NCBI RefSeq assembly: GCF_003334815.1
Contig: NZ_QOWO01000010.1
Strand: one strand, 5' to 3'
DNA: 64,000 bases
Origin: Escherichia coli
GTDB taxonomy: Bacteria; Pseudomonadota; Gammaproteobacteria; Enterobacterales; Enterobacteriaceae
In this document: piece by piece, positions 12,646 to 50,602 of the stretch
How positions within the stretch are numbered: the first letter of the stretch is position 1
Layout of the letters: each line of letters opens with the position of its first letter
The notes under the pieces: model-generated
The model's database searches: none
What the model was told of the DNA's origin: nothing
Seen by the model: only the letters and a program-made list of their open reading frames with translations
Made by a program: the position numbers and the translations under genes

Positions 12646-13263
12646 ATGACCACACAATATGGATTTTTTATCGATTCCAGCCGCTGTACTGGCTGTAAAA
12701 CCTGCGAACTGGCGTGCAAAGATTTTAAAGATCTTGGCCCGGAAGTCAGTTTCCGCCGTATTTATGAATACGCTGGCGGCGACTGGCAGGAAGATAATGG
12801 CGTCTGGCACCAGAACGTGTTCGCTTATTATCTCTCCATCTCCTGTAACCATTGCGATGACCCCGCATGTACAAAAGTCTGCCCCAGCGGCGCAATGCAT
12901 AAGCGTGAAGATGGCTTTGTGGTGGTTGATGAAGATGTTTGTATCGGCTGCCGCTACTGCCACATGGCTTGTCCGTACGGCGCGCCACAGTACAATGCTG
13001 AAAAAGGGCACATGACGAAGTGCGATGGTTGTTATTCGCGCGTCGCCGAGGGGAAACAACCCATATGTGTCGAATCCTGCCCGCTGCGTGCACTTGAGTT
13101 CGGTCCAATTGAAGAGCTGCGCCAGAAGCACGGCACTCTTGCTGCCGTCGCGCCACTGCCGCGCGCGCATTTCACAAAACCCAATATCGTTATCAAACCT
13201 AACGCCAACAGCCGCCCGACCGGCGATACCACTGGTTATCTGGCTAATCCGGAGGAAGTGTAA
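12646..13263 (+). CDS. ynfG: Four-cluster [4Fe-4S] ferredoxin-type electron-transfer subunit (DmsB-like)
   Basis: 205-aa ORF with four Cys clusters (CTGCKTCELAC, CNHCDDPACTKVCP, CIGCRYCHMACP, CDGC…CVESCP). Confidence 0.95.
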   Translation: MTTQYGFFIDSSRCTGCKTCELACKDFKDLGPEVSFRRIYEYAGGDWQEDNGVWHQNVFAYYLSISCNHCDDPACTKVCPSGAMHKREDGFVVVDEDVCIGCRYCHMACPYGAPQYNAEKGHMTKCDGCYSRVAEGKQPICVESCPLRALEFGPIEELRQKHGTLAAVAPLPRAHFTKPNIVIKPNANSRPTGDTTGYLANPEEV

Positions 13264-19353: not shown

Positions 19354-20607
19354 GTGAGCCGTACTACAACTGTTGATGGCGCTCCGGCAAGCGACACTGA
19401 CAAGCAAAGCATTTCTCAGCCAAATCAATTTATTAAACGCGGTACGCCGCAATTTATGCGCGTCACCCTGGCGCTGTTCTCTGCCGGACTGGCAACATTT
19501 GCACTTCTCTATTGTGTGCAGCCTATCCTTCCGGTGCTTTCGCAGGAGTTTGGCTTAACCCCCGCGAACAGTAGTATTTCACTGTCCATTTCCACGGCGA
19601 TGTTGGCTATTGGTTTGCTGTTTACTGGCCCGCTATCCGATGCCATTGGTCGCAAACCAGTGATGGTCACGGCGCTACTGTTGGCCTCCATTTGTACGTT
19701 ACTTTCGACAATGATGACCAGCTGGCACGGCATTTTGATTATGCGCGCCTTGATTGGGCTTTCGTTAAGTGGCGTGGCAGCTGTTGGCATGACTTATCTT
19801 AGCGAGGAAATCCATCCCAGTTTCGTGGCCTTTTCAATGGGGTTGTATATCAGCGGCAACTCAATTGGCGGCATGAGCGGACGCTTAATTAGCGGTGTCT
19901 TCACGGACTTTTTCAACTGGCGAATTGCTCTGGCGGCAATCGGTTGTTTCGCGCTGGCCTCGGCGTTGATGTTCTGGAAAATCCTCCCTGAATCACGCCA
20001 TTTTCGCCCGACTTCGCTGCGCCCTAAGACGTTGTTTATCAACTTTCGTCTGCACTGGCGTGACCGGGGATTACCGTTATTGTTCGCAGAAGGCTTTTTG
20101 CTGATGGGGTCGTTCGTCACGCTGTTTAATTACATCGGCTATCGGTTGATGCTCTCCCCCTGGCATGTCAGTCAGGCCGTGGTTGGCTTATTATCGCTGG
20201 CTTATTTGACCGGTACATGGAGCTCACCCAAAGCCGGAACCATGACCACCCGCTATGGGCGTGGTCCAGTGATGTTGTTTTCGACGGGGGTTATGCTGTT
20301 TGGTTTACTGATGACCTTATTCAGCTCGCTGTGGCTGATCTTTGCCGGAATGTTACTCTTCTCAGCAGGATTCTTCGCAGCCCACTCAGTAGCCAGCAGC
20401 TGGATCGGCCCCCGCGCAAAACGCGCTAAAGGCCAGGCCTCCTCGCTGTATCTGTTCAGTTACTATCTGGGGTCGAGTATTGCCGGGACGCTGGGTGGTG
20501 TTTTCTGGCATAACTATGGCTGGAACGGCGTCGGCGCATTTATTGCTCTGATGCTGGTCATTGCTCTGCTGGTCGGGACGCGTTTGCATCGTCGTCTGCA
20601 CGCCTGA
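19354..20607 (+). CDS. ynfM: MFS transporter
   Basis: 417-aa ORF with a GTG start and a 12-TM-like profile. Divergently arranged with the LysR regulator ynfL. Confidence 0.85.
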   Translation: MSRTTTVDGAPASDTDKQSISQPNQFIKRGTPQFMRVTLALFSAGLATFALLYCVQPILPVLSQEFGLTPANSSISLSISTAMLAIGLLFTGPLSDAIGRKPVMVTALLLASICTLLSTMMTSWHGILIMRALIGLSLSGVAAVGMTYLSEEIHPSFVAFSMGLYISGNSIGGMSGRLISGVFTDFFNWRIALAAIGCFALASALMFWKILPESRHFRPTSLRPKTLFINFRLHWRDRGLPLLFAEGFLLMGSFVTLFNYIGYRLMLSPWHVSQAVVGLLSLAYLTGTWSSPKAGTMTTRYGRGPVMLFSTGVMLFGLLMTLFSSLWLIFAGMLLFSAGFFAAHSVASSWIGPRAKRAKGQASSLYLFSYYLGSSIAGTLGGVFWHNYGWNGVGAFIALMLVIALLVGTRLHRRLHA

Positions 20608-20913
20608 AAAATAAGTCCGGACTGCGGTAAATACCCGTCCGGACTTATTGCCAGCTCAAACCAACGTTAATAGCCATCCTAAAATAGACGAAGCGCCAGC
20701 CAATTCCCGCAGCGCGTCTAGCGTCATCAGGATTATAAGTACCCAAATAAACGGATTCATTTTGCTGTGTGTCATTTATTACTGATGCGCAGTTATTCTA
20801 CTGCTTTGTAAGTAGTAAAATAGTTAACCCGATCAAGACTACTATTATTGGTAGCTAAATTTCCCTTAAGTCACAATACGTTATTATCAACGCTGTAATT
20901 TATTCAGCGTTTG

Positions 20914-20927
20914 TACATATCGTTACA
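20914..20927 (+). promoter_or_regulatory. RstA-box match in the asr promoter region
   Basis: TACATATCGTTACA fits the RstA box TACATNTNGTTACA as recalled, about 105 bp upstream of the asr start. An adjacent Pho-box-like element CTGTAATTTATTCAGCG sits at 20893-20909. Confidence 0.5.
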
Positions 20928-21030
20928 CGCTGAAACCAACCACTCACGGAAGTCTGCCATTCCCAGGGATATAGTTATTTCAACGGCCCCGCAGTGGGGT
21001 TAAATGAAAAAACAAATTGAGGGTATGACA

Positions 21031-21339
21031 ATGAAAAAAGTATTAGCTCTGGTTGTTGCCGCTGCTATGGGTCTGTCTTCTGCCGCCTTTGCTGCAGAGA
21101 CTACGACCACACCTGCTCCGACTGCGACGACCACCAAAGCAGCGCCGGCGAAAACTACACATCATAAAAAACAGCATAAAGCAGCACCTGCCCAGAAAGC
21201 GCAGGCGGCTAAAAAGCATCATAAAAATACGAAAGCTGAACAGAAAGCCCCTGAACAAAAAGCGCAGGCAGCGAAGAAACACGCCAAGAAACACAGCCAT
21301 CAGCAACCGGCAAAACCTGCTGCACAACCCGCAGCGTAA
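21031..21339 (+). CDS. asr: Acid shock protein (periplasmic, Lys/Ala/His-rich)
   Basis: ORF 21004..21339 trimmed to the ATG at 21031 ([21 protein letters not shown], 102 aa). Signal peptide and internal KAQAAKKH repeats. Confidence 0.85.
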
Positions 21340-21431
21340 GTTTTCAACAGTAATGCTGGCGCGCCCCCTCGCGCCTGAAAATTACGGTGCTAAGCGGGTA
21401 ACGTTTAGCACCGCCTTTAGCGGAGGGTAGT

Positions 21432-21515
21432 ATGGTGGGCCGTTATCGCTTTGAGTTCATTCTGATCATCCTTATTTTATGCGCACTGATTGCCGCCCGT
21501 TTTTATCTTTCCTGA
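21432..21515 (+). CDS. ydgU: Small hydrophobic protein (27 aa)
   Basis: ATG at 21432 preceded by a GGAGGG RBS with a 5-nt spacer. Translates to MVGRYRFEFILIILILCALIAARFYLS, then TGA at 21513-21515. Too short for the ORF track; matches the position and sequence of E. coli ydgU as recalled. Confidence 0.5.
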   Translation: MVGRYRFEFILIILILCALIAARFYLS

Positions 21516-21614
21516 TTGTAGTTATCTGATTTTACTCCCACTTTCATCCCGTCCCGTCTATAGTATTTATGAGGGTTTGCTTTTAATAATCATAATTACC
21601 CACCAGAGTGTGAT

Positions 21615-22436
21615 ATGCGTACAACCATTGCTGTAGTGTTGGGTGCAATTAGTTTGACGTCTGCTTTTGTGTTTGCAGATAAACCAGACGTTGCCAGATC
21701 GGCAAACGATGAGGTCAGCACCCTGTTTTTTGGTCATGATGATCGTGTGCCAGTGAATGACACGACCCAATCACCGTGGGATGCGGTTGGGCAACTGGAA
21801 ACGGCCAGCGGCAATTTATGTACGGCGACGCTGATTGCACCCAATCTGGCATTAACGGCAGGACACTGTTTATTGACACCTCCAAAGGGTAAAGCCGATA
21901 AAGCAGTGGCGCTGCGTTTTGTGTCAAATAAAGGTCTTTGGCGCTATGAGATCCACGACATAGAAGGCCGCGTTGATCCGACACTGGGAAAGCGGTTAAA
22001 AGCAGATGGGGATGGTTGGATTGTACCTCCCGCAGCCGCGCCGTGGGACTTCGGATTGATTGTGCTACGTAATCCCCCTTCTGGCATTACGCCGTTGCCG
22101 TTATTTGAGGGAGATAAAGCCGCGCTTACCGCCGCATTAAAAGCGGCAGGTCGTAAAGTGACTCAGGCAGGCTACCCTGAAGATCATCTCGATACGTTGT
22201 ACAGTCATCAAAACTGTGAAGTGACTGGCTGGGCGCAAACGTCGGTGATGTCACATCAGTGCGATACCTTGCCGGGTGACAGCGGTTCGCCTCTGATGTT
22301 GCATACCGATGACGGCTGGCAATTAATTGGGGTGCAAAGTTCGGCTCCTGCCGCGAAAGATCGCTGGCGCGCCGATAACCGGGCCATTTCTGTTACCGGT
22401 TTTCGCGACAAGCTGGATCAACTGTCGCAAAAATAA
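21615..22436 (+). CDS. ydgD: Secreted trypsin-like serine peptidase
   Basis: 273-aa ORF with a signal peptide and the catalytic motifs TAGHC and GDSGSP of S1-family proteases. Confidence 0.8.
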
Positions 22437-24626: not shown

Positions 24627-26018
<1,392 letters not shown>

Positions 26019-36385: not shown

Positions 36386-38032
36386 TTATTTCACACAGCG
36401 GGTGCATTGTGTGAGTTGTATCTGCTGGAAGAAGTCATTTCCTTTATCATCCACAAGGATAAACGCCGGGAAATCTTCCACTTCAATTTTCCAGATGGCT
36501 TCCATTCCCAGTTCCGGATATTCAACACATTCCAGGCTCTTAATACTTCCCTGCGCCAATACAGCGGCCGGACCACCGATACTGCCAAGGTAGAAGCCGC
36601 CGTGTTTTTTACAGGCATCCGTCACCTGCTGGCTGCGGTTGCCTTTCGCCAGCATGATCATACTTCCGCCCTGCGCTTGCAGTTGATCGACATAAGAATC
36701 CATCCGTCCGGCGGTCGTTGGGCCAAGAGAACCGGAGGCATAACCTTCCGGCGTTTTGGCCGGACCCGCGTAGTAAATCGGATGATCTTTGATGTACTGC
36801 GGCAGCCCTTCACCGTTATCCATCCGCTCTTTCAGTTTGGCGTGAGCAATATCACGACCGACGATAATCGTGCCGTTAAGCGATAAGCGTGTAGAAACGG
36901 GATACTGCGACAACTGTGCGAGGATCTCTTTCATCGGACGGTTAAGGTCAACGCGCACCGCTTCGCCTTCTCCCGCTTTGCGCAGCTCTTCCGGGATATA
37001 TTTGCCTGGATTATGTTCCAGTTTTTCGATCCAGATCCCCTGACGGTTGATCTTCGCTTTGATATTACGGTCAGCAGAGCAGGAGACGCCCATACCGACC
37101 GGGCAGGATGCGCCGTGACGTGGCAGGCGAATCACGCGGATGTCGTGAGCGAAGTATTTACCACCAAACTGCGCACCCAGACCAAGATTTTGCGCTTCGA
37201 TCAGCAATTCTTTTTCCAGTTCCACATCGCGGAACGCCTGACCGTGCTCATTCCCTTCCGTTGGCAGTTCATCATAGTATTTCGCGGAAGCCAGTTTCAC
37301 CGTTTTAAGGTTCGTTTCTGCAGAAGTTCCACCAATAACGAACGCAATATGATACGGAGGACAGGCCGCCGTACCCAGCGTGCGCATCTTCTCAACCAGG
37401 TAATTTTTCAGTTTCCCCGGCGTCAGTAACGCTTTGGTTTCCTGATAGAGATACGTCTTGTTTGCCGAACCACCACCTTTGGCGATACAGAGGAATTTGT
37501 ATTCGTCGCCATCAACGGCATAAAGATCGATCTGCGCTGGCAGATTGGTGCCGGTATTCACTTCTTTATACATATCCAGCGGCGCGTTTTGCGAGTAGCG
37601 CAGATTATCTTCGATATAAGTGTTATAGACACCGCGCGCCAGCGCCGCTTCATCACCACCACCGGTCCATACACGCTGCCCTTTTTTACCAACAATAATC
37701 GCGGTGCCGGTATCCTGACAGGTTGGCAGAACGCCTTTCGCCGCGATGTCGGAGTTACGCAGGAATTGCAGCGCCACATATTTATCATTTTCGCTGGCCT
37801 CCGGGTCACGCAGAATGTCGGCCACCTGTTGTTGGTGCGCCGGACGCAGCATGAACGACGCATCATGAAACGCCTGGCGCGCCAACAGAGTTAACGCTTC
37901 GGGTGCGACTTTCAAAATCTCCTGCCCTTCAAATTCAGATACGCTAACGTGTTCGCTGGTTAGCAGGTAATACTCAGTATCATCTTTTTTGAGTGGAAAA
38001 GGAGCCTGATAATGAAAGGGTTTGTTTGACAT
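36386..38032 (-). CDS. fumA: Class I (Fe-S dependent) fumarate hydratase (fumarase A)
   Basis: 548-aa ORF; recognised as FumA, a class I fumarase with conserved Cys residues. Confidence 0.95.

Positions 38033-47806: not shown

Positions 47807-50602
<2,796 letters not shown>

Follow-up and report, generated by a model that had tools for sequence, protein, structure and literature searches.

Two long reading frames overlapping the Escherichia coli acid-shock gene asr are very probably shadows of the Asr protein sequence

Introduction

In the window (the whole 64-kb stretch of Escherichia coli DNA analysed here), a gene of 102 codons is overlapped by two long open reading frames, one on the same strand and one on the opposite strand. 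The question raised by this locus is whether these frames are genes in their own right or a by-product of the protein that the annotated gene encodes. An initial annotation, made from the DNA letters, assigned the gene to asr, described the mature product as being made of Lys/Ala/His-rich KAQAAKKH-type repeats, and held that these repeats generate two spurious ORFs that should not be annotated. It proposed: a compositional analysis of the translated ORF; a comparison of repeat number with other genera; and a check of the alternative frames for conservation or translation.

The analysis described below suggests a simple answer. The feature at 21031-21339 is asr, an acid-shock gene of E. coli that is already known and ordinary, and the two overlapping ORFs are very probably shadow ORFs fixed by the Asr amino-acid sequence. 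Their importance is limited to annotation hygiene. Only two points go beyond the textbook here: the hazard that the shadow frames pose to annotation, and a lead concerning the cleavage of Asr at its repeats.

The gene at the locus is asr

The assignment to asr was borne out by the product of the gene, which scores 102 bits against the NF033636 equivalog (cutoff 50; residues 1-100 covered in the NCBIfam profile search), matches Pfam PF06392 at E=5.6e-12, and is identical to RefSeq E. coli Asr at 100%. RefSeq names the product at this locus "acid resistance repetitive basic protein Asr" and gives the gene order as ynfM, a 39-aa KPN_01571-family protein, asr, the 27-aa ydgU/samT, ydgD, mdtI, and mdtJ. 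The neighborhood agrees with Asr membership, with samT at 21432-21515 and a matching RefSeq context (Table 1). Across 80 loci of Asr relatives, samT lies downstream of asr in 67 and ydgD in 59. A 701-nt stretch around asr is present in 5423 of 5426 complete E. coli genomes, many of them at 100% identity. A PDB sequence search with Asr returned no solved relative, as expected for a disordered protein.

Table 1. Positions of the features discussed at the asr locus, numbered along the window; arrows mark cleaved bonds
Feature	Position	Strand	Basis or remark
Shine-Dalgarno GAGGG	21019-21023	+	7 nt 5' of the 21031 ATG; kept in orthologues
asr CDS (102 aa + stop)	21031-21339	+	ORF list, PF06392, NF033636, RefSeq identity
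Signal peptide, aa 1-21, cleaved AFA↓AE	21031-21093	+	sole hydrophobic part; MS/MS fragment starts at A22
Presumed spurious codon-aligned antisense ORF, 94 aa, Phe/Leu/Arg/Cys-rich, TTG start	21043-21327	-	mechanical ORF list
Presumed spurious +1-frame ORF, 125 aa, Arg/Lys-rich, TTG start	21053-21430	+	mechanical ORF list
Thr/Ala/Pro-rich N-terminal segment, aa 22-58, ends with first QKAQ	21094-21204	+	published peptide
A6 run, commonest chimera junction	21166-21171	+	GCA_000190815.1 DNA = window minus one A
Repeat unit 1, aa 52-72; core QKAQAAKKH at 21193-21219	21184-21246	+	cut between nt 21204/21205 (Q58↓A59)
A5 run, second chimera junction	21211-21215	+	GCA_052882035.1 DNA = window minus one A
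Repeat unit 2, aa 73-93; core QKAQAAKKH at 21256-21282	21247-21309	+	cut between nt 21267/21268 (Q79↓A80)
samT (ydgU), 27-aa small membrane protein	21432-21515	+	NF052476 at 70 bits; RefSeq CDS

The ATG at 21031 is the correct start of asr, because the GAGGG that precedes it is conserved and the upstream in-frame ATG at 21004 is not, the latter being ATA or TAA in other Escherichia species. The same 309-nt CDS, in the same Shine-Dalgarno context, is present in E. coli K-12 (b1597, NC_000913.3:1671376-1671684; ATTGAGGGTATGACA). Asr itself has no differences between K-12 and the window, and all three of the published MS/MS fragments discussed below are identical in the two. The neighbors samT/ydgU and ydgD are also the same. 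Within SamT, the window has an Ala where K-12 has a Thr (CALIAARFYLS versus CALITARFYLS), which sets the window apart from MG1655.

Published work places asr among the responses of E. coli to acid. Its induction at pH 4.4 is ~1000-fold, the strongest of all genes, and about 2% of ribosome footprints fall on asr at this pH (PMC10746267). With this share of footprints, rare frame slippage would still yield some product of the +1 frame. The downstream samT is co-transcribed with asr in an RstA-dependent asr-samT operon, from which Asr exerts positive and SamT negative feedback on RstB-RstA (PMC13425233). PMC10746267 and PMC13425233 cite functional work in which Asr is an intrinsically disordered chaperone or aggregase of the periplasm; the former paper also cites Ren et al. 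2022 for a role of Asr in supporting outer-membrane integrity.

Composition and repeats of the Asr protein

Asr is exported by the Sec route to the periplasm and is intrinsically disordered and strongly basic, with two 21-residue units. All of its hydrophobic residues lie within aa 1-21, which end in the A-x-A of a Sec signal, as judged from composition and the published fragment. The 81-residue mature protein is built from nine residue types only: A (28%), K (21%), T (14%), Q (11%), P (10%), and H (10%), with E, N, and S as the remaining three. V, L, I, M, F, W, Y, and C do not occur in it at all. The proposed compositional analysis thereby makes "Lys/Ala/His-rich" a fair description, A and K being the commonest residues, with His no more frequent than Thr or Gln.

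The statement that mature Asr is made of KAQAAKKH-type repeats is correct in one part and overstated in another. The repeats are real. Two exact copies of QKAQAAKKH are found at aa 55-63 and 76-84, 21 aa apart, and an exact 9-residue repeat arose in 0 of 5000 shuffles of mature Asr (maximum 8, mean 4.2). However, aa 22-50 are Thr/Ala/Pro-rich and non-repeat. At the DNA level, the repeat pair covers 36 nt at 78% identity with a spacing of 63 nt, and a third copy, upstream of the pair, is weaker and degenerate.

Comparison of the two full units identifies 13 of 21 residues and 36 of 63 nt in common, with differences at 16 of the 21 third positions. The two 27-nt cores are more tightly matched in protein, keeping 9 of 9 residues; they differ at six nucleotides, all of them in third positions. 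The repeat duplication in Escherichia asr is old, its two copies having diverged since.

The Asr sequence holds both alternative frames open

Both alternative ORFs have exactly the coordinates first given for them, as confirmed against the mechanical ORF list. The +1 ORF extends 91 nt beyond the asr stop and terminates at a TAG (21428-21430) that lies 1 nt before the samT ATG. Across the mature asr region, stops are absent from the +1 and codon-aligned antisense frames and number 3-6 in the other three frames. The underlying codons are strongly constrained: T occupies codon position 1 or 2 in 0 of the 81 mature asr codons.

In the +1 frame, codons begin at the second base of the asr codons. 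A stop would therefore need a T at that base, which would correspond to a V, L, I, M, or F codon in asr. Because T at position 2 is absent from the mature codons, this frame is open until the intergenic TAG at 21428. For the codon-aligned antisense frame, a stop would correspond to a sense TTA, CTA, or TCA codon, encoding Leu or Ser. This second frame is open back to the Leu TTA at 21043, within the signal peptide, because Leu is absent from mature Asr and its single Ser is encoded by AGC.

The contribution of the protein sequence was measured by recoding. The Asr protein was held constant, and its synonymous codons were redrawn 5000 times with the codon usage of the window. The +1 frame was open in 100% of these recodings, and the antisense frame in 88%. 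By comparison, when 81-codon segments are taken from ordinary long ORFs of the window, 3.5% of them have an open +1 frame and 18.8% an open codon-aligned antisense frame; both are open at once in 14 of 540 such segments. Openness of both frames is uncommon for a typical gene and is fully accounted for by the amino-acid sequence of Asr.

The spurious status first assigned to these ORFs stands, but repetition as its cause does not. The stop-free stretch also spans the N-terminal part, which lacks repeats, and continues through 91 nt of intergenic DNA. The real cause is the absence of hydrophobic residues and of TTA, CTA, and TCA codons.

Shadow ORFs in general arise by the same mechanism, above all in the codon-aligned antisense frame, where a stop requires one of the rare sense codons TTA, CTA, or TCA. 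The 64-kb window has 117 ORFs of 90 aa or more, and 54 of these sit inside a longer ORF of another frame. The asr locus differs from these in that the same-strand +1 frame is open as well, and is strictly forced to be so. Unlike the general shadow-ORF case that has been described, the asr +1 shadow ORF (125 aa) also exceeds the true gene (102 aa). It is a clean example of a disordered protein without hydrophobic residues giving rise to a shadow ORF longer than the gene.

Orthologues and coding signals

Conservation of the alternative frames was assessed in 76 complete Enterobacterales genes, taken from 80 loci of Asr relatives on one-genome-per-species contigs. Of the 76 orthologues, 11 have a fully open +1 frame, and the remaining 65 have 1-9 stops in it. 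The state of this frame follows the hydrophobic content of the protein: it is open in 7 of 7 genes without hydrophobic mature residues and in 4 of 69 with at least one, and the number of stops correlates with the V/L/I/M/F count (Spearman 0.79 over the 76 orthologues). Many orthologues have a Val or Met in their linkers, which closes the +1 frame, whereas the mature Asr of the window has neither.

As for the antisense frame, 59 of the 76 orthologues have it open. This only resembles conservation, because the Leu and Ser counts, with E. coli-like codon usage, predict 55.7 open frames. TCA accounts for 19 of the 185 Ser codons in the orthologues, which is about background.

The distribution of substitutions was analyzed in six equal-length Escherichia-clade genes. 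In the mature region, asr codon positions 1, 2, and 3 have 13, 8, and 41 variable sites, respectively. Within this clade, the alternative-frame peptides are 58-94% identical and Asr is 84-96% identical; in one example, the values are 65% and 67% for the alternative peptides versus 86% for Asr. Within the gene of the window, the +1 and antisense translations of the two repeat cores differ because of the six third-position differences between them. These patterns suggest that selection acts on the asr frame only. The conservation check put forward for the alternative ORFs gave nothing beyond composition (11/76; 59/76 versus 55.7; 13/8/41), with the orthologue comparison identifying neither a frame kept open above expectation nor purifying selection in an alternative frame.

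Signals that could support expression of the alternative frames were also sought. The starts of the +1 frame inside asr are three TTGs, all without a Shine-Dalgarno sequence, and neither ATG nor GTG is among them. The ATGs of the antisense ORF (21300, 21222, 21219, 21177, 21165, and 21162) are reverse complements of His CAT codons, and the best upstream signal is a weak 4-nt AGGT. No promoter-like site was found on either strand in a scan with the sigma-70 consensus, no family was found on either strand in an Rfam scan of 20600-21700 at E<=1, and no family match was returned by an NCBIfam search with both alternative peptides. Consistent with the advice that the ORFs should not be annotated, RefSeq annotates neither at this locus.

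An exact look-up of the alternative peptides in a 15-billion-protein collection returned no match; it failed to return the 102-aa and 111-aa canonical Asr sequences too, and was therefore given no weight. A literature search for an overlapping gene at asr returned no whole-word mention of asr, its matches stemming from "asRNA". An acid-stress Ribo-seq study (PMC10746267) left out same-strand overlaps and ORFs >70 aa; its silence on the alternative ORFs is weak evidence because ORFs of these kinds were excluded there. On the composition, conservation, and start-signal results, the alternative frames are probably not translated from wild-type DNA.

Frameshifted Asr entries in protein databases

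The advice against annotation holds in so far as neither ORF is annotated directly, but the +1 peptide is already public, forming the C-terminal end of "Asr" entries that carry a frameshift. These E. coli entries, 110-141 aa in length, begin as Asr and continue as the +1-frame peptide (...TFSTAFSGG). Matches of 141, 132, 131, 122, and 110 aa were considered as repeat-number variants and were rejected on reading their sequences, which are the Asr N-terminus plus the +1 peptide. With chimeras defined by alternative-frame words of 7 residues or more, and with clusters drawn at 90% identity, 27 of the 120 "Asr homologue" clusters among the matches listed are frameshift chimeras, mostly into the +1 ORF. 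Their junctions lie at a dozen or more different places, most commonly the A6 run, and some of the entries are officially named Asr.

Two of these entries were checked at the DNA level, GCA_000190815.1 at the A6 run and GCA_052882035.1 at the A5 run. Apart from the missing A (Table 1), both are 100% identical to the window over 437 nt. The shortened (A5) allele of the A6 run has 0 exact matches in 5422 complete RefSeq E. coli genomes. The sole route by which the +1 peptide reaches databases is most likely a 1-nt deletion in an A run that arises as a sequencing or assembly error. Since no stop interrupts the +1 frame, a frameshift error at this locus gives a CDS that exceeds the true gene in length.

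A single homopolymer miscall can in this manner make a plausible CDS out of the shadow, and about a fifth of the retrieved 90%-identity clusters are of this type. Inferring Asr repeat expansion from protein length is misleading, since those entries of 110-141 aa that were read are, in all likelihood, artefacts and not proteins with extra repeats.

Genes, frameshift products, or errors

Three other readings of these frames can be set against the structure of the data. One is that one or both alternative ORFs are genuine overlapping genes, as proposed for some E. coli O157:H7 ORFs. The ORFs are long (125 and 94 aa), with the +1 ORF outsizing asr, and the antisense frame contains several in-frame ATGs and is open in 59 of 76 orthologues. 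This openness is, however, fully predicted from the Asr protein sequence, and the +1 frame carries 1-9 stops in 65 of 76 orthologues. Substitutions that cluster at asr third positions (41 versus 13 and 8) also argue against selection on either peptide, as does the failure to find a convincing Shine-Dalgarno, promoter-like site, family match, or RefSeq annotation for them. We regard overlapping genes as exceedingly improbable. The same grade applies to programmed frameshifting or transcriptional slippage at the A-rich Lys codons, which would produce an Asr-poly(Arg/Lys) fusion ending before samT. Here, the attractions are: A6 and A5 runs that lie in frame inside asr; a +1 product that would still be strongly basic, with a net charge of +35; a +1 TAG at 21428-21430 that abuts the samT ATG at 21432; and very high translation of asr at pH 4.4. 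Efficient slippage, however, generally needs A runs longer than six. In addition, both of the chimeric entries checked carry a genuine 1-nt deletion in their DNA, the A5 allele occurs in 0 of 5422 complete genomes, and the +1 frame is closed in most genera. The published MS/MS fragments (22-58, 59-79, and 80-102) tile the zero-frame protein fully. A shifted product from wild-type DNA was not found among these data, the DNA of the chimeras lacking one A and the peptides being zero-frame only.

The remaining alternative concerns the chimeric entries themselves, which could be real natural loss-of-function or variant alleles and not sequencing or assembly errors. The presence of at least a dozen independent junctions over 27 clusters, one of which holds 33 member sequences, speaks for real alleles, and homopolymer slippage is a genuine mutational process. 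Against this, the two entries checked at the DNA level differ from the window in homopolymer length only, none of the 5422 complete RefSeq genomes has the exact A5 allele, and most of the entries trace back to read sets that are draft, third-party, or assembled automatically. Real alleles are distinctly unlikely on this evidence, though less so than either genes or programmed products. Sequencing or assembly error in an A run, acting on a frame that the Asr protein sequence holds open, is the reading carried forward.

Asr is cut within the repeat core

The account of Asr in PMC6782097 documents processing of the protein, citing Seputiene 2003, and Table 1 of that paper reports MS/MS fragments of Asr from lactose-acidified E. 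coli. When placed on the protein of the window, the published fragments correspond to aa 22-58, 59-79, and 80-102, an exact tiling of mature Asr. The masses were recomputed for each. Fragment aa 59-79 has a computed monoisotopic [M+H]+ of 2371.295 (reported m/z 2371.207), and fragment aa 80-102 has a computed monoisotopic [M+H]+ of 2401.332 (reported m/z 2401.201), an agreement to about 0.1 Da for both. Fragment aa 22-58 (AETTTT...APAQKAQ) has a computed average [M+H]+ of 3823.3 (reported m/z 3824.8); the extra C-terminal K printed for this peptide in Table 1 of PMC6782097 does not fit the mass.

Because the fragments tile the protein as 22-58/59-79/80-102, the cuts, whether made in the cell or during handling of the sample, fall at QKAQ↓AAKKH in both E. 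coli repeats. The initial annotation had stated that Asr is proteolytically processed in the periplasm. This is supported by the documented MS/MS fragments (PMC6782097) and can now be sharpened to a specific bond.

Conservation of the core was quantified in 75 distinct proteins. In the 197 KAQ-anchored sites found there, in which the KAQ residues are fixed by construction, P4 is Gln in 99%, and the residues that follow the anchor are A (95%), A (96%), K (97%), K (99%), and H (88%). Together with the published MS/MS peptides and the mass check, this supports the view that the most conserved motif of the family holds the scissile bond. Seputiene et al. are said to have placed, in 2003, a second Asr processing site after Gln58; the first of the two cuts (Q58↓A59) agrees with that position.

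Repeat number across the Enterobacterales

The signal peptide and the QKAQAAKKH core are common to the Asr of the window and that of other Enterobacterales, including Citrobacter, Klebsiella, Enterobacter, Salmonella, Yersinia, Serratia, Pectobacterium, and Edwardsiella. The proposed comparison of repeat number across genera gave a range of 1 to 7 QKAQAAKK cores. A single core is found in Salmonella arizonae, one Yersinia paralogue set, and Citrobacter sedlakii. Two are found in Escherichia and in several Citrobacter and Serratia, and 3-5 in Klebsiella, Enterobacter, Raoultella, other Citrobacter, Pectobacterium, and Rahnella. The highest numbers, 6-7, belong to Yersinia alsatica (second copy), Y. 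nurmii, and Edwardsiella anguillarum. All six of the Escherichia-clade genes encode 102 aa with two cores each.

The spacing from core to core is 15-25 aa in Asr relatives, and the core itself is almost invariant. Tandem Repeats Finder identified periods of 45-75 nt in these genes, all multiples of three, the largest array having 6.5 copies at 94% match. Arrays of up to this copy number and match point to recent expansions in Asr relatives. In contrast to these recent tandem expansions in other Enterobacterales, Escherichia Asr has two old, diverged copies.

A possible cleavage module and the neighboring peptidase

The location of the cut within the repeated core raises the possibility that the repeat is a processing module. 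In this proposal, Asr would be a putative tandem pro-protein that would be cut in the cell once per repeat, with YdgD as a candidate enzyme. The proposal is tentative and, on balance, unlikely. If cleavage proceeds in this way, the products would be a Thr/Ala/Pro-rich N-terminal piece and n short polycationic His-rich peptides, the latter of 15-25 aa and a median net charge of +5. The number of repeats, 1 to 7 in Enterobacterales, would then set the peptide dose.

Multi-copy peptide precursors that are cut at a repeated site are known among eukaryotic prohormones and insect apidaecin precursors. These offer an analogy for processing only, in that the conserved motif of Asr occurs once per repeat and is cut at both E. 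coli copies. No homology between Asr and the prohormone or apidaecin precursors is implied, and published work treats Asr as a disordered chaperone or aggregase. If true, the proposal would turn the "repetitive basic protein" into a source of short cationic peptides, a change of modest importance, and would provide the neighboring YdgD with a testable substrate.

The suggestion that YdgD is the enzyme that processes Asr is a long shot, and proceeds from guilt by association. The ydgD product is an uncharacterised periplasmic S1-family peptidase of the trypsin fold, and its gene adjoins asr-samT on the downstream side. This placement is kept in 59 of the 80 loci of Asr relatives, down to about 55% identity. 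At pH 4.4, the translation efficiency of ydgD is up 4.5-fold (log2 2.16; Table S4, PMC10746267).

Frameshifted Asr entries

Public E. coli "Asr" entries of 110-141 aa consist of the Asr N-terminus joined to the +1 shadow ORF, the spurious 125-aa frame (21053-21430, plus strand) that overlaps asr and runs past its stop. These proteins are frameshift chimeras, and 27 of the 120 clusters retrieved are of this type. The check at the DNA level covered two such entries only (loci L082 and L083), each of which differs from the window solely by one A missing from a homopolymer run.

The shadow ORF is closed by a TAG at 21428-21430, one base ahead of the samT ATG (21432). If asr carried a frameshift, translating ribosomes would stop right at the start of samT, which encodes a small membrane protein, and this termination could couple samT translation to asr. 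The intergenic RNA between the two genes (21337-21436) is predicted to form an unusually stable fold of three hairpins (-38.7 kcal/mol, z=-2.9), none of which is followed by a T run. The last of these, pairing 21414-21418 with 21423-21427, is predicted to place the samT Shine-Dalgarno sequence GGAGG in a paired state.

Positions of features at the asr locus
Feature	Position	Strand	Basis or description
39-aa ORF	20656-20775	-	NCBIfam KPN_01571 family, NF033695, 63 bits
Homopolymer runs tied to frameshift	21166-21171 and 21211-21215		loci L082, L083
Asr cut Q58/A59	21204/21205		published MS/MS fragments
Asr cut Q79/A80	21267/21268		published MS/MS fragments
samT	21432-21515	+	small membrane protein gene
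ydgD	21615-22436		uncharacterised periplasmic trypsin-fold peptidase gene

Processing of Asr

The Asr fragments identified by MS/MS in PMC6782097 are 22-58, 59-79 and 80-102, which together cover the mature protein end to end; therefore, both repeat cores are cut, at QKAQ/AAKKH. The recomputed fragment masses agree with the published values to about 0.1 Da. The location of these cuts in the two cores draws no remark in PMC6782097. One possible candidate for the processing enzyme is YdgD. Its gene lies downstream of asr-samT in 59 of the 80 Enterobacterales loci encoding Asr relatives (L002-L081), and ydgD is translated more efficiently at pH 4.4 (PMC10746267, Table S4).

Two asr paralogues are present in Yersinia, Klebsiella pneumoniae, Raoultella terrigena, Enterobacter sp. 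10-1 and Serratia sp. AKBS12 (locus pairs L013/L031, L025/L028, L030/L065, L036/L046, L037/L042, L068/L077 and L078/L080). The multi-repeat copy of Yersinia has neither samT nor ydgD downstream. The Klebsiella and Raoultella copies still have samT. Their 1.5-kb flanks show no full-length ydgD; L030 has a partial match at its flank end.

Start and upstream region of asr

An in-frame ATG upstream of the asr start (region 21004-21030) would give a 111-aa product, and several database entries use it. This codon is not conserved: other Escherichia species have ATA or TAA in its place. The Shine-Dalgarno sequence GAGGG ahead of 21031 is conserved. About 100 nt upstream of asr lies TACATATCGTTACA (20914-20927), a putative RstA site that fits the RstA-box consensus, TACATNTNGTTACA. 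Between ynfM and asr sits the 39-aa ORF, encoding a small protein of unknown function with a relative in only 6 of the 80 related loci.

Database look-ups and strain difference

An exact-sequence look-up of the canonical 102-aa Asr in a collection of 15 billion proteins reported it absent, and a homologue search gave no 100% match to Asr over its full length. Low-complexity filtering may lie behind these missing matches. Because canonical Asr itself was missed in the collection, negative look-ups at this locus are unreliable.

SamT residue 21 is Ala in the window (…CALIAARFYLS) and Thr in K-12 MG1655 (…CALITARFYLS), indicating that the window is not from MG1655.

Elsewhere in the window, at least three mutually overlapping ORFs of at least 90 aa occur at 58022-58785, 24681-25161 and 12659-13156, and likewise at 3561-3929, 37558-37894 and 47852-48204.
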